Of a DNA stretch of 64,000 bases, positions 4 through 64,000 are shown piece by piece (positions within the stretch are counted from its first letter, which is position 1; each line of letters opens with the position of its first letter). Both the position numbers and the translations under genes were made by a program. The notes beneath the pieces were generated by a model. It was given only the letters and a program-made list of their open reading frames with translations, did no database searches and was not told where the DNA came from. Source of the DNA: a virus; IMG/VR virus record IMGVR_UViG_3300023110_000023, positions 14,302 through 78,301 of that record; one strand, given 5' to 3'.

Positions 4-47
4 CCTTGCTCATCATGTTGATATTGCGAAGCATTGATATACCCCCT
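4..47 (+). repeat. 44-bp direct repeat copy 1, containing class I double-box promoter
   Basis: CCTTGCTCATCATGTTGATATTGCGAAGCATTGATATACCCCCT, identical to 417-460; proximal TTGATA 30 bp before ATG 64. Confidence 0.9.
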
Positions 48-63
48 TCACTTCCCAATCATC

Positions 64-414
64 ATGGCCGACCAATGCCCTATCAAGTGGTTCAATGCTG
101 ACGAGATGGTGGATGCAATCGCGTTCCCCGAAAACGAACAGCGTTCAATGACGATTCAAGAAGTCAAGGAGATGGCTTGGTCGGACATCATGGAACAGGT
201 TGAGTTTGAGTGTGATATTGAAGTCAATGGCTCGTTCATCACCGATAAGTTCGGAGTTCAGTCGTTCATCGTTTCAAAGTTCAAAGACGGCATCTATGGC
301 GAGGCAGTCATGTGCGTTGTTGGTTCTTACGATGTGGCTAAGGTTGTAGCCGACCGCCACGAAGGTGCTGGTGTAGTCCAATACGCAAGCAACGGCTTCG
401 TCATCGTGTGCTGA
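64..414 (+). CDS. hypothetical protein (class I cassette)
   Basis: Track start at 34 is the TTG of the promoter box; ATG 64 is 30 bp downstream, consistent with a leaderless start. Confidence 0.75.
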   Translation: MADQCPIKWFNADEMVDAIAFPENEQRSMTIQEVKEMAWSDIMEQVEFECDIEVNGSFITDKFGVQSFIVSKFKDGIYGEAVMCVVGSYDVAKVVADRHEGAGVVQYASNGFVIVC

Positions 415-416
415 TT

Positions 417-460
417 CCTTGCTCATCATGTTGATATTGCGAAGCATTGATATACCCCCT
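417..460 (+). repeat. 44-bp direct repeat copy 2, containing class I double-box promoter
   Basis: Identical to 4-47; TTGATA at 447, ATG at 477. Confidence 0.9.
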
Positions 461-476
461 ATGCGTAGCACTCACC

Positions 477-1148
477 ATGACCCGACACACTCACATCGTT
501 GAGTTCACGACCCCGATGACCGAGCGCGAACTGAAAGTCGCTATCGGCAAGGCCGTTTCCTTTGTCCAAGAAGAATCCAACACCATCGGGCGACAGGTTG
601 CCGAAGCAGATGCGTTCCGCTGGGTCAAGCACCCATTCACCAACATCACATACGAGGACAAGCAAGTGGACAAGCCCACCAGCCTCCCCTTTTACACCAC
701 GCACGACTTTCAGTTCCGCATGGTTGATGGAAAAATCCAGCAATACGCAGTTATCCACCTATCCATACAAGTCGGTGGACAGGTCAAGGGCGATTCAATG
801 ACTCTTGACGAGATGCCCGAAGACTTGACAATTGAAGGCATCAAGTTCGGCAAGACCCGAAGCCGTCAAGGAACGGTTTGGATGGACTTCACGGGCGATT
901 CTCACGCCTTCGTCTTCTTCGTTGCCTTGAAGGACTGCATGACCTTTGAAACGCCCGATGAACTTCGTGAGGCTTATGTCGGCTACGGGCGACAACCCAC
1001 AGACTTCCAACGCATTGACTCGGCAAGGGGATTCGCACACGGGATTCAGCGAGTCAAGGAAGCAAACGGCATCACAGCCGTTTCGGATGAGAACACCATC
1101 AAGGCCATCACGCTTCTCTATGAAGACCGCAAGGACAGGCAGGGTTGA
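477..1148 (+). CDS. hypothetical protein (class I cassette)
   Basis: ATG 30 bp after the promoter box; long ORF with genome-typical codon usage. Confidence 0.75.
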   Translation: MTRHTHIVEFTTPMTERELKVAIGKAVSFVQEESNTIGRQVAEADAFRWVKHPFTNITYEDKQVDKPTSLPFYTTHDFQFRMVDGKIQQYAVIHLSIQVGGQVKGDSMTLDEMPEDLTIEGIKFGKTRSRQGTVWMDFTGDSHAFVFFVALKDCMTFETPDELREAYVGYGRQPTDFQRIDSARGFAHGIQRVKEANGITAVSDENTIKAITLLYEDRKDRQG

Positions 1149-1149
1149 T

Positions 1150-3045: not shown

Positions 3046-3074
3046 CATTGATATTCCGAAGGTATTATAGGGGG
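3046..3074 (+). promoter_or_regulatory. class I double-box promoter (variant)
   Basis: CATTGATATTCCGAAGGTATTATAGGGGG; ATG 3094 at +30 from ATTATA. Confidence 0.65.
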
Positions 3075-3093
3075 CAACCTGTTGGCTCACATC

Positions 3094-3285
3094 ATGCAGA
3101 AGCAACACTTCGTCAAAGTCCGAGAAGACGGCCAGCGATTCGTGGTCTATTGGTTCATCGTTGAGCCAACGCGAGCATACGGGGGCGACATCATCGGAAT
3201 CCAGCAAAGCCGATGCAACGCTATGGAGGTCGCATACAGCGTAGCCCAGCGACACGGCACTACGGTCGTCATGCACCAAGCGTGA
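3094..3285 (+). CDS. small hypothetical protein (class I cassette)
   Basis: MQKQHFVKVREDG...; leaderless spacing from box. Confidence 0.6.
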   Translation: MQKQHFVKVREDGQRFVVYWFIVEPTRAYGGDIIGIQQSRCNAMEVAYSVAQRHGTTVVMHQA

Positions 3286-3324
3286 ACCAATTCCGTTAAG
3301 AACCGCATTGACCAACCAATCGGT

Positions 3325-3717
3325 ATGGCGGTTCACTCTTTCACAGGTGTCAGCGGAAAAATCACCGTGTCGGGAAGCATTGTCGGATTCGTTTCGGGCG
3401 ACTTCTCAATGACTGCGACAACGGGCAAATACATCACACTCGGAACGAACTACAACACGGCACACACTCGCGGTGTGCGAACTGTGTCGGGCTCGCTCAA
3501 GAAAGCGTGGGGTGTCAGCGATGACGAACTCTTTGATTGGTTCAACAACGACACCGAACTTGACATTGAGTTTGACGCTGATGACGCTGGAACGCACACA
3601 TACACCGTGTCGGGCTGTGTCTTGACCGACCTTGCGATTGAAGGACTTGAAGCAGGGAACGAGGGTGCGTTGATGATTAACGCTTCCTTTGAGGGCTTGA
3701 CTTGGGCTCGCGATTGA
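3325..3717 (+). CDS. tail tube protein
   Basis: 130-aa beta-rich acidic protein before chaperone and tape measure genes; class III box GTTAAGAACC at 3295. Confidence 0.75.
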   Translation: MAVHSFTGVSGKITVSGSIVGFVSGDFSMTATTGKYITLGTNYNTAHTRGVRTVSGSLKKAWGVSDDELFDWFNNDTELDIEFDADDAGTHTYTVSGCVLTDLAIEGLEAGNEGALMINASFEGLTWARD

Positions 3718-4276: not shown

Positions 4277-6567
4277 GCGTGGCGATGGATAGCGTGGCTA
4301 AAATCACGGCCATCGTTGAAGCGCGTACGGCTGGCTTCAAGAAGGGAATGGCGGAGGTCGGAAGTGGGCTCACGGTTGCTGGTGGTCGTTTCAGCCGATT
4401 CGGTGAAACGGCTCGCAAGTCCTTCGTGGCGGTTCAAATCGGTGCTGTGCTTGCAGGTCAAGCCCTCGTTGCTGGCTTCGCAGTCAAGGCTTCAAAGGCG
4501 TTCATTGAGTTTGAGGATTCACTCCTTCGGACTTCGGCTATCATGGGCGGGAAGTCCATCTCGGACATTCAACGAGTGGCTGACGAAGTGATGCACTTGG
4601 GTGCTACAACCCGTTCCACAGCCGTTCAAGTGGGCGAGGCGGCGCAGATTTTGGCGTTGGCTGGTTTGAAGGAAGAGGACTTGGTGGACAACAAGGCACT
4701 TGAGCAATTGAACAACCTCGCAATCGCCGCTGGCGTTGATATGCCGACCGCCGCTGGCGTTGCGATTTCAGCCCTTAAAGGTATGGGAATGGAAACCAGC
4801 GAATTGGGTCGCGTGAACGATGTGATGATGCAAACAATGAGCAATTCGTTCACTACGGTTGAGTCGCTTGGGCAGACCATGAAGTTCCTTGCACCAACGG
4901 CTCGCGCGGCGGGCATTTCATTGGAAGAAGCATCCGCCGCGGCGGGTGCATTGGGCAACGCAGGGCTTCAAGGAACGATGGCTGGAACAGGTATGCGTAT
5001 GGCTATCAACAAACTCATCAAGCCGACTACGGAGGCTCGGAGGGTCATTGAAGACTTGAACCTCAATGTCTTCCGATTGACTCCAGCGGGTGAATCGGCT
5101 CGCAACAGTCTGCGAGGGGTTGAGGCTGGGTTGGAAGAAACTCGGCTTCAAGCGGAGGGCGTGAACCTTGAAATCAAGGCACTCAACAGCGAACTCAACG
5201 ACCTGTCCATTGACCAGCAGAAGAACAACCTTGAGATAGCCAAAATCCGCCAGCGAGCATCCAAGCAGGGTCGTGAATTGACCAAGCGTGAGATTGAACA
5301 GATTGAGCGTTTGGAGATGGCGAATGATGACTTGAACATCACCATGCAAGAACGCAGTTTGGAACTGTCCATCCAGCGAAGAGAGCAGACGCAGTTATCG
5401 GAGTCAATAAGCAGTCAAGAATCGGAGATGAACTCGCTCAACCAAACCATCACCGACCAAACTCAAGGACTGACATCGCTGACCGATTTGTTCCAGCAAT
5501 TGCGCGATGCTGGTGCGACAACATCGCAGATTCTCCAAGTCTTCGGTGTGCGTGGTGGAAACGCAATCAACGCCATTTTGGGACAGGCCGATGCCTTTGA
5601 GGAATTGGTCGCCAAGAACGAGGATGCAAACGGCAGAACTGCGGAGTTCGTTCAAACCATGACAGGCTCAACGCAGAACGCCCTGTTTGAATTGCAGTCA
5701 GCCTTCACAGCGTTGATGATAACAGTCGGTGAACAGTTCGCCCCGATGATAAAGGACACACTCGTTCCAGCACTCATCTTGGCGACTGAAAAATTGGGCG
5801 ATGAAGGCTTCGTGGAGGCGATGGGAGAAATCGCTGACAAATTGGTTGAGGTCTTGCCCCAATTGATTGATTCCTTCGTGCCTGTGCTGATTCAAATGGC
5901 GGAACAGTCGGATGACTTGATTTATGTCTTCGTGGCTCTCGCTCACGCTCTCCGATTCCTCATGGTTTTCATTGAGCCCATCTATGAATTGCTGGGCGGT
6001 ATCGGGATGATATTTGAGGGAATCGCGACCCTAAATCCACAGATGATTTTTGAGGGGCTTGGAAAGGCGGCGGGTGGTCTTGCACTCATATTGATGCCGA
6101 TATACAGGCTGGTTGAAGCGATTGCTGATTTCTTGGGCATTATTGACGAGGAAGGAACGGGCGCGCAACGGGCTGGGTCGGGTGCTTTGAAGGGGGCGGC
6201 GGCTGGTGCGTTGGTCGGTTCTGCTGTCCCCGTTGTCGGAACGGCGGCGGGTGCTGTCGTGGGTGGAATCATCGGTGCTGGGCTCACGATGTTCGCAGAA
6301 GGTGGAATCGTGAACGAAGCCACGCTGGGTGTCTTCGGTGAGGCTGGTTCGGAGGCTGTGATTCCGCTGGACAGACTCCCTGCATTGATGAGCGAATCAA
6401 TGGGAGGGCAAGCCTCAAAGCCCGAAACCACAGTCGTTTTCAGCGGGGACATCATCATTGGCGAAGGCAACAACCTTTCAAAGCGCGATGTTGAGCAGAT
6501 AATGGTGGAAACGATGCCGAAGGTGTTCAACCGATTCGGAATGCAAGGTGCAAGGGGTGTGATTTGA
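4273..6567 (+). CDS. tail tape measure protein (TP901-like core)
   Basis: HLGATTRSTAVQVGEAAQILALAG, ESLGQTMKFLAP, GLQGTMAGTGMR; coiled-coil; hydrophobic segments; C-term AEGGIV...GEAGSEAVIPL. Confidence 0.93.
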   Translation: MSVAMDSVAKITAIVEARTAGFKKGMAEVGSGLTVAGGRFSRFGETARKSFVAVQIGAVLAGQALVAGFAVKASKAFIEFEDSLLRTSAIMGGKSISDIQRVADEVMHLGATTRSTAVQVGEAAQILALAGLKEEDLVDNKALEQLNNLAIAAGVDMPTAAGVAISALKGMGMETSELGRVNDVMMQTMSNSFTTVESLGQTMKFLAPTARAAGISLEEASAAAGALGNAGLQGTMAGTGMRMAINKLIKPTTEARRVIEDLNLNVFRLTPAGESARNSLRGVEAGLEETRLQAEGVNLEIKALNSELNDLSIDQQKNNLEIAKIRQRASKQGRELTKREIEQIERLEMANDDLNITMQERSLELSIQRREQTQLSESISSQESEMNSLNQTITDQTQGLTSLTDLFQQLRDAGATTSQILQVFGVRGGNAINAILGQADAFEELVAKNEDANGRTAEFVQTMTGSTQNALFELQSAFTALMITVGEQFAPMIKDTLVPALILATEKLGDEGFVEAMGEIADKLVEVLPQLIDSFVPVLIQMAEQSDDLIYVFVALAHALRFLMVFIEPIYELLGGIGMIFEGIATLNPQMIFEGLGKAAGGLALILMPIYRLVEAIADFLGIIDEEGTGAQRAGSGALKGAAAGALVGSAVPVVGTAAGAVVGGIIGAGLTMFAEGGIVNEATLGVFGEAGSEAVIPLDRLPALMSESMGGQASKPETTVVFSGDIIIGEGNNLSKRDVEQIMVETMPKVFNRFGMQGARGVI

Positions 6568-11473: not shown

Positions 11474-11504
11474 CATTGATATTGTGAAAACATTGATATA
11501 CCCC
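11474..11504 (+). promoter_or_regulatory. class I double-box promoter
   Basis: CATTGATATTGTGAAAACATTGATATACCCC; ATG 11522 at +29. Confidence 0.75.
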
Positions 11505-11521
11505 ACCCCTAATGCCTAACC

Positions 11522-11899
11522 ATGAGCCCAACCATGAGCCCCCACGCACTCCAGCGCGTTGATGAGCGACTTGTCGGTGCAGAAGCCGAGAAGGTCGCCA
11601 ACGCTGTCAAGTCTGCCTGTGCAAAGCATGGAAGCCGAAGCATCGGAATCATCGCTCACCGATTGAACGGTCAGCGTGGTCAAGCATGGGGCGAGAAGTC
11701 CAATGGCGACTGCGTTGTTGTCATCGTGCGAAACAACCAAGTCAAGACCACATACCTCCGCCGAGCCACTCAAACCTTTGACCTCTCCGTGTCCCGCACC
11801 GATGTGCTGGTGGACATGACGGGAACTGTCCTCAAGTCCGTCATGACCAAGAACGGTGGCGGTCGTGGTGCTGACTTCAACCCATTCAACATGAACTGA
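11522..11899 (+). CDS. hypothetical protein (class I cassette)
   Basis: MSPHALQRVDERL...VVIVRNNQVKTT; weak resemblance to RelE-like/DUF4258 RNase folds. Confidence 0.7.
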   Translation: MSPTMSPHALQRVDERLVGAEAEKVANAVKSACAKHGSRSIGIIAHRLNGQRGQAWGEKSNGDCVVVIVRNNQVKTTYLRRATQTFDLSVSRTDVLVDMTGTVLKSVMTKNGGGRGADFNPFNMN

Positions 11900-12278: not shown

Positions 12279-12310
12279 TGCTCTTAAACCAGCGTTGGAC
12301 TGCCTAAAGC

Positions 12311-19150: not shown

Positions 19151-19169
19151 ATGCCTTTCATCTCGTATC

Positions 19170-22437: not shown

Positions 22438-22440
22438 CAC

Positions 22441-50118: not shown

Positions 50119-50137
50119 TCGTGTGCTGGGGATAATC

Positions 50138-50578: not shown

Positions 50579-50635
50579 GCCCACCATGCGACCCTGCTGG
50601 GTCTTTGATAAGGGTGGGGGGCAAGAGCCCTCTCC

Positions 50636-50836
50636 ATGACGAGATTCAAGGTCGTAGTGGACTTGGGGGATGCTGGAGTCATCTCCGAAGAAGCAAGTGG
50701 GAATGTGAGCAACGCACTCAAGATGGCGTATGAAAAATGCAAGGAGAAGCGAACCAATCCCATCAGCGTCAGCGTAGTTCAAATCGCGGAGGCTGATTCG
50801 GGAAATTGGAAGCCCTCCATTCCATCTCGCTCGTAA
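50636..50836 (+). CDS. small hypothetical protein
   Basis: Class II box TTGATAAGGGTGGG at 50605. Confidence 0.65.
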   Translation: MTRFKVVVDLGDAGVISEEASGNVSNALKMAYEKCKEKRTNPISVSVVQIAEADSGNWKPSIPSRS

Positions 50837-51045
50837 GCGTAGCGGGTGGGGGGCGAACAGGTCGCCTTCACTTGATGCAAGGCATCGGCACATCAACGAT
50901 GTGTGGTCGTTCCACAGAAGAAGCAATCATCCACGATGGCGAATGGGTTGATGAGGTTCTCACCAACCTTGACGACAAATCCACCAGCGTGTGTGCGAAG
51001 TGTCGCGCTTGCTGGGACAAAGCAAATCGCCCAAACCGAGATTAA
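50806..51045 (+). CDS. small Zn-finger protein
   Basis: H...MCG...CAKCRAC. Confidence 0.55.
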   Translation: MEALHSISLVSVAGGGRTGRLHLMQGIGTSTMCGRSTEEAIIHDGEWVDEVLTNLDDKSTSVCAKCRACWDKANRPNRD

Positions 51046-51067
51046 CCGAGAGGGTTGATTCCATGTC

Positions 51068-51412
51068 ATGTCAGCGGAGGAAGCGGAGATGAAGCCCGAA
51101 CTCAAATGGGTCGTGGCTGGAAGCAAAGGGATGGAACTTCACGCACATCGGTGCGACAACGATGAGAAGGTCATCAGCATCACCACAGGCAACACCACAT
51201 GGGCATTCACCTTCGTTGGTGTTGAAGGTGCTGGGAAGGTTCGCATCGGTGCTGGGTGCAATTTCAATCCACTTCAAATGGTGGAATCGCTGTGGTCAAT
51301 GCTCATGTCGCATGAGCCCGATGAAGCCATCCACATCTCGCTGGATGACTTGGATTTGAGCGACATGAACATGAACGCATTCAACAAAGAATTGAGGGAG
51401 GATTGGACTTGA
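51068..51412 (+). CDS. hypothetical protein
   Basis: AGATTAACC box at 51039. Confidence 0.65.
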   Translation: MSAEEAEMKPELKWVVAGSKGMELHAHRCDNDEKVISITTGNTTWAFTFVGVEGAGKVRIGAGCNFNPLQMVESLWSMLMSHEPDEAIHISLDDLDLSDMNMNAFNKELREDWT

Positions 51413-51696: not shown

Positions 51697-54431
51697 TGGG
51701 TCGCGAGCAAGAACTCCGAGATTGGTTGGCGACCAACGCGCCCGATGTCGTGGTGCGAAAGAACACGACATACAGGGAACTCGCTCGGCTGGTGCAACAG
51801 CAATCGGGCGGTGTCCCCATCGTCTTGGGCGACCTTGATGACGAGTTCCGCGACCCGCGTACAACCACGACAACGACCACTACAACGACCGCCACAGGCA
51901 CAGGAACAGCCGACTTGGAGATTGGGAATGTGAACACCGTTTCGGCTTCTGCTGGTGCGTCAGCGACCATCACGACAGCGACCGATGGAACTCGCAAACT
52001 CAACCTCAACATTCCGAGAGGCGACACGGGCGCGTCGGGTGCAAACGGAAGCGATGGTGCGAATGGGACTAACGGTGCTGACGGACAAGACGGTGCAGAC
52101 GGTTCGCCAGCGACCATCACAATCGGGACAGTTTCAACGGGCTCGGCTGGGTCAAGTGCAACGGTCAGCAACAGCGGGACTTCATCTGCTGTGGTGCTGG
52201 ACTTCACGATTCCAGCAGGGGCTACGGGTGCGACAGGTGCGACAGGTGCGACAGGTGCAACGGGTTCTGCTGGTGCAGACGGGGCAGACGGGGCTGATGG
52301 TGCAGACGGCACATCGGCAACCATCGCAGTCGGAACGGTGTCCACAGGGTCAGCAGGTTCGTCAGCAACGGTTGTCAATTCGGGAACTGCGAGTTCCGCT
52401 GTCTTTGACTTCACGATTCCGAGAGGTGCAGACGGCACGAATGGAACGAATGGAACAAACGGGGTTGATGGTGCAGATGGGGCAGATGGGGCAGACGGGG
52501 TTTCACCGACTGTGGCTGTTGGAACAGTCAGCACAGGGTCAGCGGGGAGTTCTGCGACCGTTGTGAACAGCGGAACATCGTCAGCGGTCGTCTTGGATTT
52601 CACCATCCCAAGAGGCGACACGGGCGCGACAGGTGCTACGGGTGCAACAGGCTCGGCTGGTGCTGATGGTGCTGATGGGGCAACCCCAACCATCACAATC
52701 GGGACAGTCAGCACAGGTGTGGCTGGGTCGTCTGCGACAGTCAGCAATTCGGGAACGCCCACAGCGGTCGTGCTGGACTTCGCGATTCCAGCGGGGGCAG
52801 ATGGGGCAGATGGGGCTGATGGAACTGATGGGGCTGACGGCAACACGATTGACATTTCAGCCCTCCCAGCGAACACGGCAATCGCTGATGCCGACCTTCT
52901 TCTGCTTGATGACGGGGCTAACGGCACGAACCGAAAAATCACCTTCACAGCAGTCAAGAATTGGATAAAAGGCTACGGTGTGAAACACGCTGACCAATTC
53001 GGGAACGCTGGAATTGAGGGCGGTGTGAACGAACTTCGGATTCGGGATTCACGCTATGATGGCGATGTTCACCCCAACGAGTTCCCCGACAAAACCGTGT
53101 CATTTGATTTCACAGACGACATCACAGGTTCACCAAACTCTTGGGATGCAGTCATCACGATGAAGGGCTGGTCGGACAATTATCGGGCATATCAAATATG
53201 GTCGTCTGCGTCTTCGGGTGGGCAGTCTGTGGATGAAGTTCCGCTATTCTTCCGTAGTGGCGAGGAAGATGTGCAAGACGGCTGGGGTCAAACGAAGGAG
53301 ATTCTCACTTTCGCTGGAACAGCCCCACGCGTTGATGGTGCTACGGGACAAATCCTCCAAACCGATGGTGCTGGAACTTTGTCTTGGGTTGATTTGCCCG
53401 CAGGTAGCGGTGGAACACCAGCGGGCGTATTGGGCTCAATACAGTTCAACGATGGTGCTGGTGGATTCGCCAGCGATGATGCGAACTTGCTTTGGGATGA
53501 TGCGAACAACCGATTGGGCGTTGGGACAAACTCGCCAAGCGAAACGCTTCATGTCAAAGGGAATCTGCTGGTTGAAGACCCGTCATCAACAGGGTCATCC
53601 GACCATTTGCTTGAAGTCAAATCGGGTTCATCAGCAACCCCCGACAACGCTCGCATTCTCGTTTCAGCAGACACCGATGCAAAATTGCCGATGTTCAACC
53701 TGCGTGATGTGGAGGCGAATGGCGGGACATTTAGCCCGAATTATTCGGCTTATCTTGCCCTTGACCGAGCAACGCCTGTCGTATCGGGTTCGGCTCAAAA
53801 TGACCTGTTGATTGCTAACGGGAACTACAACAAAGACATTCACCTTTGCACAAACAATGCAGGGGATGGTTCGGGCGTGGAGGCTCGCTTAACGATTGCC
53901 TCGGATGGCGATGTTGGGATTGGAACAACAGCACCCGACAACCCACTCCATGTGGTCGGGGCGGGCGACTTCCCCTTCCGTGTTCAAGCAGACGAAGGCA
54001 ACCTTCGGATGAACAAATACGGCCACCTTCACATTCAAAACGACAACACATCACCACCCTCCGCAAGCACAATTGACAGTCCCTTATGGTCTGTCGGCCA
54101 GCGTGATGGCGGTCAATTGGACATCGCCTTCGGCTCGCTCGCAACGCAATTGGTGTCAGCCAACGACAAACTGCTGGAACTCAAGCGGGATGCGAACTCG
54201 GCAACAGGGGCGAAGCAGATTGGCTTCTTGGGGGCAACAGCGGTCAGCCAGCAGTCTGCCTCATTCTTTGACCACACGGGCGCGTACACAGCCCCAGCAC
54301 CTCCACCACCACCGATGCCTCCGTCAGCCGACCCAACCTTTGACGCTGAACTTGATGCTCGGTTCATCGCGATTGAGCAGTCCATCGGTGAAATCATCAC
54401 GGCTCTCAAGAACTTCGGCTTGCTGTCGTGA
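51696..54431 (+). CDS. collagen-like fibre protein (tail/head fibre)
   Basis: G-A-D/G-A-T/G-T-N triplets alternating with four TIGTVSTGSAGSSATVxNSGTxSAVxDFTIP repeats; fibre motifs WDDANNRLGVGTNSP and GDVGIGTTAP. Confidence 0.85.
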   Translation: MGREQELRDWLATNAPDVVVRKNTTYRELARLVQQQSGGVPIVLGDLDDEFRDPRTTTTTTTTTTATGTGTADLEIGNVNTVSASAGASATITTATDGTRKLNLNIPRGDTGASGANGSDGANGTNGADGQDGADGSPATITIGTVSTGSAGSSATVSNSGTSSAVVLDFTIPAGATGATGATGATGATGSAGADGADGADGADGTSATIAVGTVSTGSAGSSATVVNSGTASSAVFDFTIPRGADGTNGTNGTNGVDGADGADGADGVSPTVAVGTVSTGSAGSSATVVNSGTSSAVVLDFTIPRGDTGATGATGATGSAGADGADGATPTITIGTVSTGVAGSSATVSNSGTPTAVVLDFAIPAGADGADGADGTDGADGNTIDISALPANTAIADADLLLLDDGANGTNRKITFTAVKNWIKGYGVKHADQFGNAGIEGGVNELRIRDSRYDGDVHPNEFPDKTVSFDFTDDITGSPNSWDAVITMKGWSDNYRAYQIWSSASSGGQSVDEVPLFFRSGEEDVQDGWGQTKEILTFAGTAPRVDGATGQILQTDGAGTLSWVDLPAGSGGTPAGVLGSIQFNDGAGGFASDDANLLWDDANNRLGVGTNSPSETLHVKGNLLVEDPSSTGSSDHLLEVKSGSSATPDNARILVSADTDAKLPMFNLRDVEANGGTFSPNYSAYLALDRATPVVSGSAQNDLLIANGNYNKDIHLCTNNAGDGSGVEARLTIASDGDVGIGTTAPDNPLHVVGAGDFPFRVQADEGNLRMNKYGHLHIQNDNTSPPSASTIDSPLWSVGQRDGGQLDIAFGSLATQLVSANDKLLELKRDANSATGAKQIGFLGATAVSQQSASFFDHTGAYTAPAPPPPPMPPSADPTFDAELDARFIAIEQSIGEIITALKNFGLLS
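51920..52840 (+). repeat. internal coding repeats of the fibre gene
   Basis: Four near-identical ~33-aa modules plus one degenerate copy, separated by Gly-X-Y runs. Confidence 0.85.
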
Positions 54432-54502
54432 TGCGAGGAATCGCCACCATCGCTGGCGTATCAATGGAAACGCTTATCAATTGATTCGGGTTGCGGTCGC
54501 TC

Positions 54503-54652
54503 ATGGCCGAACTGCTATACGAGATACAGACTGACAAAACGATTGAGCGAGTGTTCCGAGAGCGTGGTGTGCGATTCCATTATGTCGCCACCGAAGCGTG
54601 TGAACTGTTGATTGCCGATGAAGAGTTCATGGGCTTCCCGACAGGTATATGA
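54503..54652 (+). CDS. 49-aa microprotein (not in ORF track)
   Basis: MAELLYEIQTDKTIERVFRERGVRFHYVATEACELLIADEEFMGFPTGI; stop overlaps next ATG. Confidence 0.5.
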   Translation: MAELLYEIQTDKTIERVFRERGVRFHYVATEACELLIADEEFMGFPTGI

Positions 54653-54900
54653 CACAGGGCTCAACGACTCTCATCATGGCTTCCGACATCACTCTTCCAC
54701 CTAAGTGCAGGTGGGTTGCGAGTGGGAAGAATCCGACAGCATACATCATGAATCAATACGACCAATGCGTGTGTCAAATCTGCCTCAAGCCAATCACCCA
54801 GCAGAACACCAAATGCACTCGCAGACTCAAGGAGAAGTCCTGTGGTCAATGCTATCTCAAGTGGAAGGCATTGGAACGAGAGCGAATGGGCTTGTCTTGA
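54649..54900 (+). CDS. Zn-finger protein
   Basis: CQICLK...CGQCY. Confidence 0.6.
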   Translation: MTQGSTTLIMASDITLPPKCRWVASGKNPTAYIMNQYDQCVCQICLKPITQQNTKCTRRLKEKSCGQCYLKWKALERERMGLS

Positions 54901-54926
54901 TAACGGTGGGACAGCCCGTTCCACGC

Positions 54927-56363
54927 ATGGCCTCATACGAAGTCGTTCTTGGCGACTGCCTCACCGAACTCAAAGCGATGGAGGGTGGGCGATTCCATTC
55001 GTGCATCACCTCCCCTCCGTATTTCATGTTGAGGGACTACGGCACAGACGAGCAGATTGGGAACGAGGAATCGCTGGATGACTACATCGCCAAAATGGTT
55101 GAGGTGATGCGTGAGGTTCGCAGGGTGCTTCGGGATGACGGAGTGCTGTGGCTGAACATCGGTGATTCATACAACGGAAGCGGGGGTGCTGGAGGCGACT
55201 ACAACAAAGGTGGCTGGAAGGAAGGACAACCGCGATACGGCAAGAAGGATGACCCACGATTCAAGCCGAAGGACTTGATGCTCGTTCCACATCGGCTGGC
55301 GATTGCTCTCCAAGAGGATGGTTGGTTCTTGCGACAGGACATCGTTTGGGCGAAGAACAACCCGATGCCCGAACCAGCGAAGGACAGGTGCGTGAAGGCT
55401 CACGAATATGTCTTCCTCCTGTCCAAATCTCGCCACTATTTCTTTGACCACATCGCCATCCAAGAGCCCGTTGCAGACTCCAAACGCACGAACTACGCCT
55501 GTGGCGGTCGGACAAACGGAATCAACCACGACAGGAACGACAACGACATGAGGGAACGGTCGCTGGGAATCGTGTTCAAGACTCGCAACAAACGAAGCGT
55601 GTGGACTGTCAATACGAAGGCATACGCTGGGGCTCACTTCGCTGTGTTCCCACCCGAACTGATTGAACCATGCGTCTTGACCACGCCAACCAAGTGCTGT
55701 GCAGAATGTGGACAGGGCTACGAGAGGGTCGTTAAAGACCGAGCCTTGACTGACGAGGAAGTGCATGACTTGATGATGACACCCGAAGGGGATGATGTTC
55801 CATACACGGTCAAGGAACTTGGACACGGCAGAAGTGCTGTGGTTGAGTTTAGGGACTTGCCTCCACCGAAGGTGCTGGCGACCTATCTCAACGATGCGAG
55901 GAAGAGGGCTGGCTTGACCATCAAGGAAGTGGAGGAACGGCTGGAGTCAAGAGCCCCACATCATTGGTTTGAGATGGGCGATTCGCATTCATACCCGTCT
56001 GCTGACGAATGGCCGACCGTCAAGGAACTGTTTGACCTTGACGACCGATACGATGAGCAGATGACCAATGTGAAGTTCAAGAGTGGAATCAAAGGCGAGA
56101 ACGAGCCCACAGTCTATGGCTGGGAGAAGGCTTGCGTTTGTGAAACTGACGAAACCAAACCAGCGGTCGTGCTTGACCCGTTTGGCGGAAGTGGAACTAC
56201 GGCTGGAGTGGCGGTCAAGAATCAGCGAGATGCTGTGCTTATTGAAGTCAATAGCGAATACGCCAAACTCATCCCGAACCGTGTCAAGTCAATCGTTGGC
56301 TACGACCTTGCAGAAGGCGAGGCTTCGGTGGACACCCAAACTTTTGATGATTGGTTCAATTGA
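54927..56363 (+). CDS. DNA N4-cytosine (beta-class amino) methyltransferase with inserted HTH
   Basis: ITSPPY catalytic motif N-terminal, VLDPFGGSGTT SAM motif C-terminal, HFAVFP; start 30 bp after class II box at 54897. Confidence 0.93.
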   Translation: MASYEVVLGDCLTELKAMEGGRFHSCITSPPYFMLRDYGTDEQIGNEESLDDYIAKMVEVMREVRRVLRDDGVLWLNIGDSYNGSGGAGGDYNKGGWKEGQPRYGKKDDPRFKPKDLMLVPHRLAIALQEDGWFLRQDIVWAKNNPMPEPAKDRCVKAHEYVFLLSKSRHYFFDHIAIQEPVADSKRTNYACGGRTNGINHDRNDNDMRERSLGIVFKTRNKRSVWTVNTKAYAGAHFAVFPPELIEPCVLTTPTKCCAECGQGYERVVKDRALTDEEVHDLMMTPEGDDVPYTVKELGHGRSAVVEFRDLPPPKVLATYLNDARKRAGLTIKEVEERLESRAPHHWFEMGDSHSYPSADEWPTVKELFDLDDRYDEQMTNVKFKSGIKGENEPTVYGWEKACVCETDETKPAVVLDPFGGSGTTAGVAVKNQRDAVLIEVNSEYAKLIPNRVKSIVGYDLAEGEASVDTQTFDDWFN

Positions 56364-56436
56364 TACAATGGAAACCTTGATAAACTCTCATGTGCTGGGC
56401 GGAATAAGCCCGACCGAAACGGGCGGAGATGATACA

Positions 56437-57631: not shown

Positions 57632-57789
57632 AATTGAAGGCTTCGTATTTTGGGAATGTGTGGGAAGCCCATGCCGATGCCCTGCGTTCTCGCAACCGCT
57701 GGCGACTGCTGTTCGTGATGTCCATGCTTGGACACATCGGGTGGGGTGTTGGGGTTGTTTGATAACGGTGGGGAGGCAGACCAATGAGC

Positions 57790-58125
57790 ATGGAAGACAT
57801 TCCCGTTGAAGACTGCGTTCCGACCCAAGACACCGACTATCCACCCGAAGTGCTGGAGGCGATGTTCCAAGAGCATGAGGAAGAGGTCGCTTGGAGGCGG
57901 ATTCAACACGAAGTCAGCGAGTGGGCGAAGGGCGTGGAACTCTTGAGCCATCCCGACTTGGAGTTCTTCGTGCGACCATCGTTGAAGGTGGAACTTGAGC
58001 AGACGCTCGCCACCATTGACGAGGGCATGACCCCGAACTCTCCGCTGGAACACATGATTCGTGAGAAGGTGCGAGATGCCTTGCTCATCGTTGAGGCATA
58101 CGAGGACATTCAAGGCGTTGAGTGA
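57790..58125 (+). CDS. acidic hypothetical protein
   Basis: Class II box at 57759, ATG at +31. Confidence 0.7.
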   Translation: MEDIPVEDCVPTQDTDYPPEVLEAMFQEHEEEVAWRRIQHEVSEWAKGVELLSHPDLEFFVRPSLKVELEQTLATIDEGMTPNSPLEHMIREKVRDALLIVEAYEDIQGVE

Positions 58126-59049: not shown

Positions 59050-59095
59050 CATTGATGACCATTTCATCTTGATACAACGACACATTGATAAGGGG
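59050..59095 (+). promoter_or_regulatory. class I promoter (three boxes)
   Basis: CATTGATG...TTGATACAACGACACATTGATAAGGGG. Confidence 0.7.
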
Positions 59096-59129
59096 CAACC
59101 TCTTGGGGTTGGATAAGGAGGCACAAAAA

Positions 59130-59681
59130 ATGCAGACCGAAACCCGAAACGAAGCAAGCAAAACGAACACCCTTGTCCTTGACCGAGAGGCTGGCGAACT
59201 CGTCAGTCCCTCCGTTGATGCACCCATCGGTGCAGGGGCTCTCTTGGGGGCTGTCGCCACTCAAATGAAGAAGGCCGACAACGCCATCGCAACCGAGATG
59301 CTCGGCAACACCAAAGACACCATCAAGGACACCATCGGTGCAACCATCACCTTTGACAACGGTGCAACATACCGTGTTGAAGGCAACACCAGCGTGGGCA
59401 ACAACCACGAAGGAATCATCACGCAGAAGATGGGAACGAAGTCCCTCGCACTCTTGCTCTTGATGAGCCAAAACAAAGTGTCGGCTGAAACCATCACCGA
59501 TGACATCATCGCTTCCCTCATGAACGGAGAAGTCGGTGCTATGGCTCGCGTGTTTGACCTTGACTTTGACAGCGACCGCTTCGCTCAAGCAGAAGCCCTT
59601 CTCAAGAAAATTGAGATGCAAACCGTTGGAACTGTCAGCGGTCGCCAGCAAGCCAGCAAGGTCGTCATCACCCAAGAGTGA
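59130..59681 (+). CDS. hypothetical protein (class I cassette)
   Basis: SD GGAGG; MQTETRNEASK... Confidence 0.75.
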   Translation: MQTETRNEASKTNTLVLDREAGELVSPSVDAPIGAGALLGAVATQMKKADNAIATEMLGNTKDTIKDTIGATITFDNGATYRVEGNTSVGNNHEGIITQKMGTKSLALLLLMSQNKVSAETITDDIIASLMNGEVGAMARVFDLDFDSDRFAQAEALLKKIEMQTVGTVSGRQQASKVVITQE

Positions 59682-59813
59682 TTGCGACCCGTTGGAAGCC
59701 ACGCAGACGGACAGGACAGCCCTCACGGGATGACGGACTCCCTTCGGGGATTCCCGACCAGCAGGGGCGTGGGCTGGCTCGCCTTGATAATGGTGGGCAT
59801 CGCATGGCTGGGC

Positions 59814-60077
59814 ATGGCTCGGAACGCTTCACGCAAGACGAGGCGAGCGAACCTGTATCGGCACATGGTCAAGTCCATGAGTGTGCTGGGGGACTTCACA
59901 GCGAGTTCCCTGTGCGACCACATGAACGGTGGCTACACTTACACGCCCAGCGTTCAGTCGTTGTCCATGCACCTTCGTGCGTTTGTCCGAGATGGGCGCG
60001 TACGAATCGTCAAGGAGGCTCGTTGTCGCAGGGAATATCGGTGGGTTGGTGATGAACTCGTTCACGAAGACCCGTGA
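59814..60077 (+). CDS. small winged-helix-like protein
   Basis: FTASSLCDHM...PSVQSLSMHLRAFVRDGRV; class II box at 59784. Confidence 0.6.
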   Translation: MARNASRKTRRANLYRHMVKSMSVLGDFTASSLCDHMNGGYTYTPSVQSLSMHLRAFVRDGRVRIVKEARCRREYRWVGDELVHEDP

Positions 60078-60330: not shown

Positions 60331-60845
60331 TTATTGACAGCCATATCCATTTTCGTTTCTTGCTGACTATCCTCTCAAGCGAGAAGTCCGAAAATCACTA
60401 TGTTTTTCGGAATATCAATGCTTCCGCACCATGCCTCCAGCACATTCCACCACTTAAATGTATCAATGTTTTATTCTCTTTCAAACAATTAAACAAACGA
60501 AGAGGGGGTATGGGACACACACACTTTGGAATCGGGAAGAACACTATGGGTGCTTATATGCACATCTCCGACATCACACGGTTTTGGATGCTCAAGACAA
60601 GGTGTGTGTGTAGCAAGGGGGGTGTTCGTTTGATTCTTTTCCAAAATATCGGGCTCAATAGGCTCGCAGTCCATCGGTTTTTTTCTGCAACAATTATGCG
60701 GATTCTTGATATTCTGAAAAATCGGACTCAATGGTTTGGCCGATTCAGTTCCAATCATTTAGCGACCATGATTTTGGGGTCAAATCGGAATCTCAAGACA
60801 TCGCAATATCAACACATTGATAAGGGGGAACTCGCTGGGCGATTC
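60331..60845. other. 515-bp AT-rich non-coding region, candidate origin/regulatory hub
   Basis: Largest intergenic gap; inverted copies of TTGA(T/G)ATT(C/G)CGA (about 60407, 60786, 60801); ATCGG(G/A)CTCAAT x2; TTCCAATCATTTAG shared with 21732. Confidence 0.5.
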
Positions 60846-61202
60846 ATGTCCCGAACAATAGCCGACATCACCCAAGCCATGCGAGTGTCCCTTGACTGCC
60901 GACTAAATGACTACACGCTTGAGCAAGTCATTGACCGATTCCAAGCCTGTCTTGATGGCGAGTCCAATTGGCTTGATTTTGGCCTCACCTTCCGCTACGA
61001 AGAACAGCGAGATGCTTTCATCGGCCTCTTCCCAAAATATGTCCGATGGGGCAAGGGAAGCATGGGCGGTGTCATTGAGGGCGAATGGCTTCCAACCGCT
61101 GACCTCACTTTTGAGTTCCACTCCAATGTCGCTGGCGAGCGAAACGAAACGGGCGAGAAGCGACTTCGCAAGGTTCTCGCAGTTCTCCAATCCCTTGAGT
61201 GA
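60846..61202 (+). CDS. hypothetical protein (class I cassette)
   Basis: ATG at +29 from CATTGATAAGGGGG; the track's 5' extension runs through non-coding DNA. Confidence 0.7.
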   Translation: MSRTIADITQAMRVSLDCRLNDYTLEQVIDRFQACLDGESNWLDFGLTFRYEEQRDAFIGLFPKYVRWGKGSMGGVIEGEWLPTADLTFEFHSNVAGERNETGEKRLRKVLAVLQSLE

Positions 61203-61235
61203 ACTTGATAACCCGCAGATACGCTCGGAAGGGCT

Positions 61236-61631
61236 ATGCGGATTTTCTTCGGGCTCACGGCAAGCACATACGACCAATTCACCAAGTCCTTCTCGGCACT
61301 CACGAAGGCGATTCGTGGGCAACACCCCATCCATGTGATGCTGGACTCCAGCGACACCGCTGGGGACATGGAAGCCTATGCGAATCAGTCCACGCTGGCG
61401 AGGGACATTTTCACGGTGCATCGCGATTCCGATGCGGAGGCAATCCGAGATGACTTGCTGGCCGAAGCAGATGTGCTGGTCATGATTCAACAGGGCGAGG
61501 CTGTGGACACGAACTTCCTCCCCGACCTGTTGGGACACCTTGAAGACGGTGGTGCGACCAGCCAGCCACATGAGTGGGGCATACAGGCACTTCACAGCAT
61601 ACATCACAAAGCCGATTCGCTCGGTGCTTGA
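61236..61631 (+). CDS. hypothetical protein, degenerate GT-A-like N-terminal fold
   Basis: IHVMLDSSD...ADVLVMIQQGE..DTNFL resembles GT2 topology without DxD; TTGATAACCC at 61205. Confidence 0.5.
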   Translation: MRIFFGLTASTYDQFTKSFSALTKAIRGQHPIHVMLDSSDTAGDMEAYANQSTLARDIFTVHRDSDAEAIRDDLLAEADVLVMIQQGEAVDTNFLPDLLGHLEDGGATSQPHEWGIQALHSIHHKADSLGA

Positions 61632-62184
61632 ACTCGGCTCTCGCGATGCGTTGGATGCAATCCGACTTGCTGACCTATTCAAGTGCGAAGTCGTGGCTTG
61701 GGAATGCAACCCAAGCGCGATTGAACTGTGCAAGCACCACATTGGCGACAGGACTGACATCACGCTGGTGGAGAAGGCCGTGTGGTCGGAGAGCAAACTG
61801 CTGACCTTCCGACCCGTTGTGAACGGCAATCTCGGTGCATCATCGGTGTTCAAGGCGAACCACGCATACCCACATGAGAAGCCATACGAGCAAGTGGAGA
61901 TAACTGTGGAGGCGATGCGAGTGGATGAGTGGTGGGGCGACCGTACGCGACCGAACCTGCTGTGCATGGACTTGCAGGGCGCGGAGATGGAAGCGTTGGA
62001 ATCGCTGGGCGACATGATTGACGAGATTGACTACATCATCACGGAGGGTCAATGGAAGCGTCTGTATCACGACACTCCGCTGATTGAGGACATCTCCGAC
62101 TTCTTGGTTGAGCGTGGCTTTCGGCTCACCAAGTTCAAGGAAGTGAACGATTGGTTTGGCGACTTCCTGTTCAGTCGTGTGTGA
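61570..62184 (+). CDS. FkbM-family SAM methyltransferase
   Basis: VLELGSRD, VAWECNP, VEAMRVD, LLCMDLQGAEMEAL. Confidence 0.9.
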   Translation: MSGAYRHFTAYITKPIRSVLELGSRDALDAIRLADLFKCEVVAWECNPSAIELCKHHIGDRTDITLVEKAVWSESKLLTFRPVVNGNLGASSVFKANHAYPHEKPYEQVEITVEAMRVDEWWGDRTRPNLLCMDLQGAEMEALESLGDMIDEIDYIITEGQWKRLYHDTPLIEDISDFLVERGFRLTKFKEVNDWFGDFLFSRV

Positions 62185-62494
62185 TGTAAAGCGCGCCCGT
62201 TGATTCAACGAATGCACCCACCACGACAACGATTCCCTTGAGGAAGAGGATTCCGTTTAAGTCAATGTCAATGACCCCGCCCGATTCCTTGTCCCTGTCG
62301 TGCGATGGGATGAATTGGAACTTGGCCGTTGCTGGAAGCGTGTCGGTTTGGTTCGCATCATAGATGGAGATGAGGGGAAGCGTGGCGGAGTTTGAGGGTT
62401 TGTCAAAATACCCTTTGACACCAGCGACCCGTGTGGAATATGAGAACACCAAAGTCGTTCCATCCGATACAATCGGCAACGAGATGATAGGCAT
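62171..62494 (-). CDS. small beta-sandwich putative virion protein (paralog A)
   Basis: C-term GILFLKGIVV; class III box GTCTTAACCC 31 bp upstream on minus strand. Confidence 0.65.
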   Translation of the reverse strand: MPIISLPIVSDGTTLVFSYSTRVAGVKGYFDKPSNSATLPLISIYDANQTDTLPATAKFQFIPSHDRDKESGGVIDIDLNGILFLKGIVVVVGAFVESTGALYITHD

Positions 62495-62635
62495 GAACAG
62501 ACGATTCGCATATGCGGGTTAAGACGGTATTGACCCCGATAAATCTGAATCTCAATGCTTCCCCACGACTGTATTTAAACATGGGAATCTGCAACACCGA
62601 TTTGGTGATAAACCGCAGAACTGTTGATATGGGTC

Positions 62636-62932
62636 ATGAGCAACGCCAAAGTCGTTGAAACAGCCGATGCAACCTTGATTGGAAGCGAACCAATCATGCT
62701 CTTGAGCATCGTAGTCGGCACGACAGAACCCCCGCCAGCAGGTGCATTCACCGTTGATTTGCATAACGCCAATTCCGCTGGAGATACGCTGAACGATTCC
62801 AACAGGAAGGTTCGCCTGTCCATTGGGGCTCAATCCAATGGCTTCGCACACTCCTTTGATGGAGTCATGTTCCCGAAGGGGCTGGTCGTGAAATGCTCAT
62901 CGGCTGTTCCCATCACGGTGGAATACGAATGA
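62636..62932 (+). CDS. small beta-sandwich putative virion protein (paralog B)
   Basis: C-term GVMFPKGLVV; class III box GTGATAAACC at 62605. Confidence 0.65.
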   Translation: MSNAKVVETADATLIGSEPIMLLSIVVGTTEPPPAGAFTVDLHNANSAGDTLNDSNRKVRLSIGAQSNGFAHSFDGVMFPKGLVVKCSSAVPITVEYE

Positions 62933-63258
62933 CCCAAGCCCCGACCCTCATCCTGTGTCCGTCTGCTGAAAACCCCAAGCAATTCCGTCTTGGGATTTTC
63001 AAGGGAATCGCGATTGAACATATCGTGAACATCAATGCCGAGATTTTGGGCGATGCAATCAAGGTCGTCAAGCAGATATTGGGCTCAATCACCGAATTGG
63101 ATTTGTCTGCGTGGAACGGGGATTTCAGCATGGGACACCTTCGGGTCTTGAATCCCGAAGCAGACGCGCCCCGCTGGATGATTGACTTCTCCCCCAAAGT
63201 CCCCGAAGAAGTGAACGCTGTGTCCATCACACCCGTTCCTCCGCCTAACGGTTTTTGA
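62929..63258 (+). CDS. hypothetical protein
   Basis: ATGA overlap with upstream gene. Confidence 0.65.
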   Translation: MTQAPTLILCPSAENPKQFRLGIFKGIAIEHIVNINAEILGDAIKVVKQILGSITELDLSAWNGDFSMGHLRVLNPEADAPRWMIDFSPKVPEEVNAVSITPVPPPNGF

Positions 63259-63282
63259 TGGTGGGACAAAGTGAGTGGGAAC

Positions 63283-63465
63283 ATGGACAAAGAACCACAG
63301 GTTCGGGAATGGGTTCTTCCCGCCCTGTCATCAACCAGCGCGATTGGTGAAAAATTAGTCAGCATCCTCATGGCGAACCCGAATCAAGTTCTGCGAGCGT
63401 GTCGCATCGGAGAGGAAATCCTGTTCGTTGCTGTGGAGGGTGAGGTATGGAAGAAAGCCGACTGA
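63283..63465 (+). CDS. small hypothetical protein
   Basis: Class II-like box TTTTTGATGGTGGG at 63252. Confidence 0.55.
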   Translation: MDKEPQVREWVLPALSSTSAIGEKLVSILMANPNQVLRACRIGEEILFVAVEGEVWKKAD

Positions 63466-64000
63466 CAAATCCATTGTCGGTTGAACACCTCCTTCAAGTC
63501 CAAGCCCACTATCGCTCGCTTCGTGAATCGGACAATTTCATCAAGGAACTTCCGCCCAAGAGCGATTGGATTCGCTGGCGATACCTTGACGATGACATCA
63601 ATCACAAATTGGCTTCCGTGAGGTTTGAGCAATCTCCGACCATCAGCATCCATGCGTACGCGTTTGATTGGAACGACCCGCTTCTGCTGGAGGGGCTGAT
63701 TCGCCACGAACTCTTGCATCTCGTATGGGGCGCGAGCGAGGGTCATGGTGCGTTGTTCACGGCATCCGAAGAGGGCTGGGACAAGTTCCACCGCTACAAA
63801 CGGCAGAAGCGGAGGTTCTTCTCGGCCTTGCACTCGGAATCGGGGCGAGAGTTCTCGTATGCGTGTGCAAATTGTCAGCGAATGGTTCACCTAAACCGCG
63901 CCCTGCGACCCAATTCGGCTTGTCTTGAGTGTTGTAAAGCATTCAACAACGGCAAGTGGTGTGAAGCATATACATTGATAAGGGTGGGCGACCTCCCGTG
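63447..64000 (+). CDS. SprT-like metalloprotease with Zn ribbon (runs to window edge; not in ORF track)
   Basis: MEESRLTNP...LIRHELLH...EGHGALF...YACANC...CLECC; SD GGAGG/GGTGA; last codon TG. at 63999-64000. Confidence 0.85.
   Translation, partial: MEESRLTNPLSVEHLLQVQAHYRSLRESDNFIKELPPKSDWIRWRYLDDDINHKLASVRFEQSPTISIHAYAFDWNDPLLLEGLIRHELLHLVWGASEGHGALFTASEEGWDKFHRYKRQKRRFFSALHSESGREFSYACANCQRMVHLNRALRPNSACLECCKAFNNGKWCEAYTLIRVGDLP
63975..63988 (+). promoter_or_regulatory. class II promoter for the next gene beyond the window
   Basis: TTGATAAGGGTGGG. Confidence 0.65.

Follow-up and report, generated by a model that had tools for sequence, protein, structure and literature searches.

A host-type promoter core with three virus-specific flanks ahead of distinct gene modules in a tailed archaeal virus, probably of Poseidoniales

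The canonical archaeal promoter of leaderless mRNAs, comprising the TFB recognition element (BRE), a TATA box near position −27 and an initiator, has been mapped in Haloferax, Sulfolobus and Thermococcus, and the archaeal TATA-type box is centred ∼26–27 nt upstream of the transcription start. To our knowledge, hardly anything is known about transcription programmes in archaeal tailed viruses, and marine planktonic archaea have no cultured viruses. In the rudiviruses SIRV1 and SIRV2, most viral promoters combine a host-type BRE/TATA with an extra, virus-specific GTC element immediately 3′ of the TATA box, put forward as a cis-regulatory signal specific to the virus (Kessler et al., 2004, as reported in PMC5569661 and PMC1635249), and conserved regulatory sequences of early (anti-defence) genes have been described in archaeal viruses (Bhoobalan-Chitty et al., 2024; PMC11065993). 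Here we analysed a window of 64,000 nt, corresponding to bases 14302–78301 of the 78,301 bp IMG/VR record IMGVR_UViG_3300023110_000023 (estimated completeness 97%), for a promoter box which starts 30 ± 1 nt ahead of the ATG in ∼45 transcription units of the genome. This box occurs with three alternative flanks, namely an upstream duplicate of the box together with a downstream run of G or C (class I), a downstream GGTGGG (class II) or a downstream AACC (class III), and strain-specific orphan genes, genes of DNA replication and modification, and genes of morphogenesis fall into separate classes. We consider it likely that a host-type core carries three virus-specific flank decorations which sort the gene modules as separately controlled regulons.

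The closest described systems share some of these features and lack others. As compared with SIRV1 and SIRV2, the element adjoining the box is of the same kind but of another sequence, GGTGGG or AACC and not GTC; furthermore, three alternative decorations sort gene modules here whereas SIRV has one, and the present virus is a tailed virus of marine Euryarchaeota-type hosts. SIRV transcription is barely temporal. Class I resembles the early anti-defence promoters of crenarchaeal viruses (PMC11065993), in which a strong BRE/TATA is embedded in a longer virus-specific sequence ahead of small, fast-evolving and scattered single genes; class I fits this description, and early expression and an anti-defence function of its genes are putative. 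The crenarchaeal promoters differ in their TTTAWATA boxes and their Aca8 repressor, whereas here the box is duplicated in tandem and no protein like Aca was recognised. With the canonical archaeal promoter the viral promoters share the position of the box, a pyrimidine at −1 followed by a purine at +1, and Shine–Dalgarno (SD) sequences that are absent from first and present on internal cistrons; in contrast, the viral box has G or C at its third position, a trait common to the probable host, and classes II and III lack any BRE-like conservation upstream. Virus-specific elements grafted on archaeal core promoters of leaderless mRNAs are thus a known kind of arrangement; what is new is the set of three alternative, mostly conserved decorations on one host-type core which sort accessory, replication and morphogenesis genes in uncultured marine archaeal viruses.

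The morphogenesis genes of the virus encode a terminase, a portal, a prohead protease, an HK97-type capsid protein, a tail tube and a tape measure protein, and its replication genes a family B DNA polymerase (PolB), an SF2 helicase and an RFC-like clamp loader. Also encoded are two nucleases (ERCC4-HhH and PD-(D/E)XK), a methylase acting on DNA, a glycosyltransferase of family GT4 and a pair formed by a CobT-VWA protein and a MoxR-type ATPase. No nucleotide matches were found among deposited phages, and PolB shares 22–25% identity with its counterparts in haloarchaeal tailed viruses. Five relatives were available for comparison: four IMG/VR records (39–82 kb, GC content 37–56%) and one viral genome residing in a metagenome-assembled genome (MAG), G005 (JAPOKZ01), a 1.4 Mb assembly entitled ‘Methanobacteriota archaeon’, in which the related virus lies on three contigs. 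One MAG contig was located by capsid alignment, and a search of genome contigs with the RFC-like protein gave no match. Core proteins are 40–78% identical to those of the relatives, and for the orthologues matched in the comparison of promoter classes the protein identity ranges from 27 to 83%. Because of PolB, the RFC-like protein, the ERCC4-HhH nuclease and the tailed-virus genes, together with the presence of a relative inside an archaeal MAG, we regard the virus as a tailed virus of archaea; its hosts probably belong to the Poseidoniales (Marine Group II). CobT-VWA, a PKD protein and GT4 have been described in group E magroviruses of Poseidoniales (PMC11706807), and the gene content of the virus, which includes all three, resembles theirs as judged from these descriptions. 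No promoter analysis was found in the magrovirus literature searched.

TA-containing words are strongly depleted across the whole window, and therefore their dinucleotide-based expectations are very low; despite this depletion, the promoter words TATACCCC, TTGATATA and CATTGATA are the top over-represented 8-mers, and TTGATA was observed 71 times against 12.8 expected. The position of the box was measured to the ATG, standing in for the transcription start. The word TT(G/C)ATA(A/T) occurs 68 times in the 78 kb genome, and for 29 of them an ATG that begins a reading frame of at least 50 codons lies at +29 (n = 4), +30 (n = 16) or +31 (n = 9), as against a background of 3.1% for these three offsets (binomial p = 1e-25). 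An original prediction for this window had proposed a fixed spacing of about −30, which is borne out by these data, and every site listed in it is present at its position. A second peak of ATG offsets, between +45 and +48, is produced by the upstream tandem copy of the box. The base at −1 is C in 36 of 43 promoter-led ATGs and in 10 of 50 other starts (p = 5e-10), and C at −1 with A at +1 is the pyrimidine/purine initiator to be expected of transcripts starting at this A. SD-like words precede 6 of the 43 promoter-led starts as compared with 19 of the 50 others (p = 0.01), internal genes carrying such sequences more often than promoter-led ones. Box geometry, C at −1 and the paucity of SD words thus lend support to the earlier claim that these are archaeal-type promoters of leaderless mRNAs, and the viral promoters have the layout of such mRNAs. 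Oligo-T runs and hairpin terminators were also tested as marks of unit ends; neither marks them, and hairpin terminators are below the shuffled expectation. As the TTG of the box stands in frame 30 nt upstream of the ATG, a longest-ORF list of open reading frames (ORFs) takes it as the start; the start-codon corrections put forward in the original prediction proved right, since orthologue alignments open at residue 1 of the ATG-defined proteins.

The three classes differ in the sequences adjoining the box. In class II, TT(G/C)A(T/A)(A/G)AN is followed directly by an invariant GGTGGG, and there is zero information upstream of the box. Allowing up to one mismatch, 14 copies of its word TTSATAANGGTGGG are present where 0.12 would be expected, and every one of them is on the plus (coding) strand. 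GGTGGG sits at positions +8 to +13 of the box at these 14 sites and at 74 sites in six genomes; anchored on GGTGGG, the 74 sites show the upstream consensus TTcATAAc and zero information further upstream. Class III consists of (G)TNA(T/A)(A/G)A followed directly by (A)ACC in the position that GGTGGG takes in class II, likewise with no upstream element, and 10 of the 12 genome copies of WTAAACC lie 27–29 nt before an ATG opening at least 50 codons (p = 6e-14). Class I, with the consensus AAAcCATTGATATTccGAAgCA-TTGATATA-GGG/CCC, carries the best TATA box (TTGATATA) of the three classes and a second copy of CATTGATWT 16–18 nt upstream, so that the box-aligned layout reads AAAcCATTGATATT-N8-10, then TTGATATA, then the G or C run. 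The two boxes of the tandem are 10–11 nt apart, and TTGATA-N10-TTGATA, with at most one mismatch, was found 13 times against 0.08 expected.

The genes behind these promoters are sorted accordingly. Class II precedes the helicase, RFC, PolB, methylase, glycosyltransferase and a single-strand DNA-binding (SSB)-like protein, together with conserved neighbours. Class III precedes the protease–capsid operon, the operon running from tail tube to tape measure, a 2265-amino-acid protein and other genes of the virion arm, and also heads six units of the right arm; in the structural arm, none of the 14 class II promoters is found, as compared with 9 of the 15 of class III (p = 7e-4). None of the 16 class I genes matches a Pfam family and 4 of them have an orthologue in any relative, as opposed to 24 of the 29 class II and III genes (p = 2.6e-4).

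Conservation across orthologues offers the strongest evidence that the classes are meaningful. In most of the gene/genome pairs with a placeable start the orthologue keeps the class, while the spacer and the upstream bases are unrelated. Class II is kept in most genomes with a placeable start by the helicase, p676, p403, p269, RFC, PolB and methylase genes, and class III by the protease/capsid and tail-tube operons; class I is kept by the orthologues of the gene starting at 11522. The broadest comparison was possible for p403 (28624–29835), a protein whose acidic C-terminal tail finishes in DDDDDDWDDW, as in phage single-strand DNA-binding proteins, and which we regard as SSB-like on this account. 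Its family is present at 29 IMG/VR loci, and the orthologues of 18 distinct relatives (GC content 37–56%) have the box and GGTGGG, allowing at most one mismatch in the hexamer, 30–32 nt before the ATG. Some relatives have TTCAAGAC as their class II box and GTNAAGAACC as their class III box, both poor TATA boxes by the general archaeal consensus; the class I box of relatives is TTTATAGG or TTAATATA in place of TTGATATA, and the stretch directly upstream of it, cgAAgCA in the present genome, is another sequence in the relatives. The three flank classes sorted by gene function which the original prediction had described are therefore real, being reflected in the partition of gene content and mostly kept by orthologues in the five relatives (34–83% protein identity), several pairs lacking a recognisable box.

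In order to compare the viral box with promoters of the probable host, 330 kb of cellular contigs of the MAG were scanned upstream of the first ATGs of ORFs of at least 100 codons. The distance from TT(G/C)A(A/T) to the ATG is 29 nt in 17 cases and 30 nt in 8, other offsets averaging 2.3 cases (p = 4e-11); a control word gave 0 cases and an all-A/T version of the word gave 2. As in the virus, C is found at −1 in 15 of 24 box-led host ATGs. Furthermore, 8 of 10 tRNA genes of the MAG have the box 31–35 nt upstream, which is evidence independent of any ATG. The host boxes read TTGAAG, TTCAAG, TTCAAT or TTGATA and thus include the ‘poor’ class II and III variants of some relatives. Exact TTGATA, A/T-only words and A/T profiles gave no clear −30 signal in the host, whereas the looser TT(G/C)A(A/T) shows one. 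In the probable host lineage, which we infer this MAG to represent, TT(G/C)A(A/T) is thus the usual promoter box. The flanks behave differently: none is common to the 24 host boxes, and 12 of the 13 matches to box plus GGTGGG in the 1.4 Mb MAG fall on the three viral contigs, the 13th having neither an ATG at +30 nor any viral similarity and being a chance match. Since the host uses TT(G/C)A(A/T) and the flanks are confined to the virus, we assign the core to the former and the flanks to the latter. The view that the TTGATA core is non-canonical was consequently not confirmed, a host-type box standing ahead of both cellular ATGs and tRNA genes in the MAG.

A host-type core needs no virus-encoded reader, and the suggestion that the virus supplies one for the core found no support: a Pfam search of the full genome for TFB and TBP homologues found none. 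Indeed, no viral ORF matched the Pfam TBP, TFIIB, RNA polymerase or helix-turn-helix families, hhalign comparison of all viral protein families with the TFB and TBP of the MAG gave a best probability of 4%, and five conserved viral proteins of no known family had no significant match among PDB sequences. The MAG, which is incomplete, contains one TFB gene and one TBP gene; host paralogues of these factors are therefore unlikely readers of the classes.

Given the core promoter of the host lineage, the C−1/A+1 initiator and the lack of SD sequences, host TBP, TFB and RNA polymerase should initiate at the A of the ATG or beside it and so yield leaderless mRNA at all three classes. The flanks would then be binding sites of sequence-specific regulators, of viral or host origin, acting beside TBP and TFB, and the three classes would form separately controlled regulons. 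Class I, with the best box and an upstream duplicate, would be the likeliest to fire unaided and early, and the most likely order, put forward as a hypothesis, is class I early, class II middle and class III late; it is equally possible that the repeated CATTGATWT of class I is an operator which shuts these genes off. A stricter version of the scheme, in which classes II and III fire only when virus-encoded specificity factors bind GGTGGG or AACC beside TBP, appears to us somewhat doubtful. If true, such dependent promoters would make up an early/middle/late cascade, the first in an archaeal tailed virus to be defined by sequence, in a viral family whose hosts rank among the most abundant archaeal groups of the ocean, and the specificity factors would have no recognisable DNA-binding family. 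The early, middle and late promoters of phage T4 and the late TATT promoters of herpesviruses, which are read by a viral TBP-like factor (PMC6541308), likewise steer a host polymerase by promoter variants needing added factors; however, these belong to other domains of life and use other factors, and the likeness is an analogy only.

Several observations weigh against the proposal of three regulons on a host-type core. Class III is a short motif that is not enriched by count, with 8 copies of WTAAACC in the window against 4.8 expected. The likeness of class I promoters within the one genome may partly reflect recent duplication, two copies being near-identical. Class membership is not strictly maintained either: the nuclease at 30819 has a class III-like promoter here and a class II promoter in the nearest relative, and for several orthologues no box could be recognised in some of the genomes. 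Pfam and hhalign comparisons of the viral proteins revealed no DNA-binding regulator. The leaderless start and the temporal order are deduced from promoter geometry, and the host assignment is deduced from a binned ‘Methanobacteriota archaeon’ MAG and from the literature match to group E magroviruses.

One of the alternatives concerns class I. Its genes are strain-specific (12 of 16 without an orthologue) and scattered between the core modules, and two near-identical class I copies 413 nt apart flank one gene; the tandem boxes could thus be mainly boundaries of mobile promoter-plus-gene cassettes, serving as recombination hot spots, with promoter function being secondary. The 30-nt spacing and the C at −1 hold in class I too, however, so that these elements are promoters whatever else they may be. 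While we think it rather unlikely that the boundary role is the principal one, such a role is compatible with the promoter reading and not opposed to it.

The main rival explanation applies to all flanks and holds that they only tune promoter strength through the fit of TFB and TBP on the box, without extra factors and without a cascade; GGTGGG could then act like the eukaryotic downstream TFIIB recognition element (BREd). The viral elements lie exactly at the contact site of TFB/TFIIB 3′ of the TATA box; the single TFB and TBP genes of the MAG and the failure to find a viral regulator are in keeping with this explanation. In addition, GTGGG matches the BREd consensus RTDKKKK (PMC4581360) over its first five positions. 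In a comparison of 63 sites, however, the last two positions of the consensus fit in 43% and 57%, which is chance level. Moreover, host promoters in the MAG are without such a flank, and so it is not one that the host TFB normally uses; the strict partition of gene modules and the conservation of the classes exceed what the setting of promoter strength needs. We therefore judge strength tuning by itself to be unlikely.

Far less probable is a virus-encoded replacement of TBP or TFB, or a viral RNA polymerase, that reads classes II and III. Some relatives do have the poor TATA boxes mentioned above in both classes, and several large conserved viral proteins belong to no known family; nevertheless, TTCAAG and TTGAAG are normal host promoter boxes in the MAG, the Pfam and hhalign searches for TBP, TFIIB and polymerase were negative (hhalign ≤4%), and archaeal viruses are not known to encode RNA polymerase (PMC5569661). 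Finally, although TTGATA is one position apart from the bacterial −35-like TTGACA, we dismiss the idea of a bacteriophage with bacterial promoter elements as having next to no likelihood, given that no −10 element is found at 16–18 nt, that sigma-70-like sites (−35/−10 hexamers 16–18 nt apart) are below expectation (5 against 9.9 in 20 kb) and all on the non-coding strand, that the replication genes are of archaeal/eukaryotic type, and that the same box precedes genes and tRNAs in an archaeal MAG having TBP and TFB.

The three promoter words allow regulons to be read, gene starts to be corrected and accessory, possibly anti-defence, genes to be spotted in metagenomic genomes, and they make a temporal cascade testable with existing metatranscriptomes. 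The common TT(G/C)A(A/T) core ties these viruses to hosts using the same unusual box, and the absence of a recognisable viral regulator points to undiscovered factors beside TBP and TFB.

The class II promoters of the window, all on the plus strand, are located as follows. The promoter at 22411–22443 (TTGATAACGGTGGG) precedes the SF2 helicase gene (ATG 22441), that at 26551–26584 the gene of the conserved 676-amino-acid protein (ATG 26582), that at 28593–28626 the gene of the 403-amino-acid protein with the acidic tail (SSB-like; ATG 28624), that at 29869–29901 a conserved 297-amino-acid protein (ATG 29899) and that at 33118–33150 the conserved 269-amino-acid protein (ATG 33148). These are followed by the promoters of the GT4 glycosyltransferase (36679–36711, ATG 36709), the RFC-like clamp loader (38847–38880, ATG 38878) and the family B DNA polymerase (40230–40263, CTGATAAGGGTGGG, ATG 40261). 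At 44794–44826 the promoter leads to a 53-amino-acid ORF (ATG 44824) followed by the gene of a 289-amino-acid protein, and at 50605–50638 to a 66-amino-acid ORF (ATG 50636). The N6/N4 DNA methylase promoter lies at 54897–54929 (ATG 54927), and two further promoters precede ORFs of 111 amino acids (57759–57792, ATG 57790) and 87 amino acids (59784–59816, ATG 59814). The box at 63252–63285 (TTTTTGATGGTGGG; ATG 63283, 60 amino acids) is degenerate, and for the last class II box, at 63975–63988 at the contig end, the expected ATG position is beyond the record.

In the virion arm, class III promoters were found on the plus strand at 1820–1852 (TTATTAAACC; ATG 1850) ahead of a SAP/DUF4214 protein, at 2541–2573 (GAAATAAACC; ATG 2571, 142 amino acids), at 3295–3327 (GTTAAGAACC; ATG 3325) ahead of the tail tube gene that opens the operon running to the tape measure, and at 12281–12313 (CTCTTAAACC; ATG 12311) ahead of the 2265-amino-acid protein. 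On the minus strand, 21490–21524 (CAATTAAACC; ATG 21492) precedes the gene of a 605-amino-acid protein, and 1639–1671 (TCAATAACC; ATG 1641), a site absent from the original list, precedes the gene at 1150–1641 (163 amino acids). Further to the right, a class III-like promoter at 30789–30821 (TTGATAAACC; ATG 30819) leads to the PD-(D/E)XK nuclease, and class III promoters of the plus strand lie at 32032–32066 (CTCATAAACC; ATG 32064, a conserved protein of 114 amino acids), 51038–51070 (GAGATTAACC; ATG 51068, 114 amino acids), 61205–61238 (TTGATAACCC; ATG 61236, 131 amino acids) and 62605–62638 (GTGATAAACC; ATG 62636, 98 amino acids), with one of the minus strand at 62492–62525 (GTCTTAACCC; ATG 62494, 107 amino acids).

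All class I promoters listed here are on the plus strand. The leftmost copy (18–66) has its upstream TTGATA at 18 and the box TTGATATA with CCCCC at 34 and precedes a 116-amino-acid orphan (ATG 64); a near-identical copy at 431–479 precedes a 223-amino-acid orphan (ATG 477). Further copies are found at 2275–2323 (ATG 2321, 73 amino acids), at 3048–3096 with the box ATTATAGG at 3064 (ATG 3094, 63 amino acids), at 19122–19172 with TTGAGA as the upstream element (ATG 19170, 166 amino acids), at 21750–21797 with the sub-element TGTGCTGGG (ATG 21795, 114 amino acids), at 26110–26160 (ATG 26158, 126 amino acids), at 32516–32564 (ATG 32562, 181 amino acids) and at 38405–38452 (ATG 38450, 129 amino acids). 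At 50074–50140, three boxes 17 nt apart precede an ATG at 50138 (146 amino acids). Class I-like promoters lie at 36242–36275, where AAAGCA and TTGATATAGGG stand without an upstream copy (ATG 36273, 133 amino acids), and at 60817–60848 (TTGATAAGGGGG; ATG 60846, 118 amino acids). Three copies are exceptions with regard to the start. At 24195–24255 (box 24211) the ATG is found at +18 or +42, and at 59069–59132 (box 59085) a leader of ∼15 nt with AAGGAGG precedes the ATG at 59130 (+45; 183 amino acids). At 56360–56410 (box 56377), AAG stands at +30 in place of ATG; because the two closest look-alikes have ATG at this position, this copy may be a decayed gene start, or else the promoter of an RNA gene. 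The promoter at 11476–11524 (ATG 11522) precedes a conserved 125-amino-acid protein with a class I promoter in five genomes. Alone among the class I genes, its gene (11522–11899) is conserved in every relative (60–71% protein identity), and in the protein the invariant motif HALQR-D-RL-G is followed by NGD-VV-I-R and YLRR. The protein matched no Pfam family, and its AlphaFold model, of low confidence (pLDDT 59), consists of two helices followed by a sheet.

A subset of class I promoters (21766, 50108 and 56377; also 60817, 2291 and 3064) has a second element, (TGT)GCTGG(G), ∼10–15 nt before the ATG. A layout recalling the viral class I tandem was also seen ahead of the TBP gene of the MAG (contig L115, ∼1440–1480), where two A/T-only boxes lie 12 nt apart, TTTATATT being followed by TTTATAAG 29 nt before the ATG.

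Besides the gene at 1150–1641 on the minus strand, sites that the original prediction had not listed comprise one inside the PolB gene (42088), one at 54459–54480 (minus strand) and several in the left 14.3 kb of the genome. A perfect tandem box, CCATTGATACCCCATAACATTGATAAACC, lies at 42088–42113 (plus strand) within the uninterrupted PolB frame (40261–42954), without an ATG at +30, and could be an internal promoter, be left over from the insertion of a cassette or mark the start of an RNA. The tandem TTGATA-N10-TTGATA at 54459–54480 lies in the intergenic stretch from 54431 to 54503 and is followed by no long ORF; it is a possible antisense or small-RNA promoter. Between 60380 and 60830, ∼450 nt without a credible ORF contain several minus-strand TTGATA boxes and the genome's only T7 run; the 300-amino-acid ORF listed there is probably spurious, and the stretch may serve as a regulatory region or origin, or hold an RNA gene.

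To the left of the window, in genome coordinates, a class I tandem promoter at 5317–5365 stands ahead of a non-coding RNA gene with a predicted start at ∼5363. Nucleotide-level conservation of this promoter-led RNA gene was not found in the four IMG/VR relatives, and a metagenome scan for transcript ends with a 24-mer taken from it returned a single 4.5 kb DNA contig. Likewise to the left of the window, a hybrid signal at 2115–2181 precedes the terminase gene, with TTGATATT followed by TTGAGATT and GGTGGG; here the start codon appears to be a GTG ∼50 nt 3′ of the second box and not an ATG at +30.

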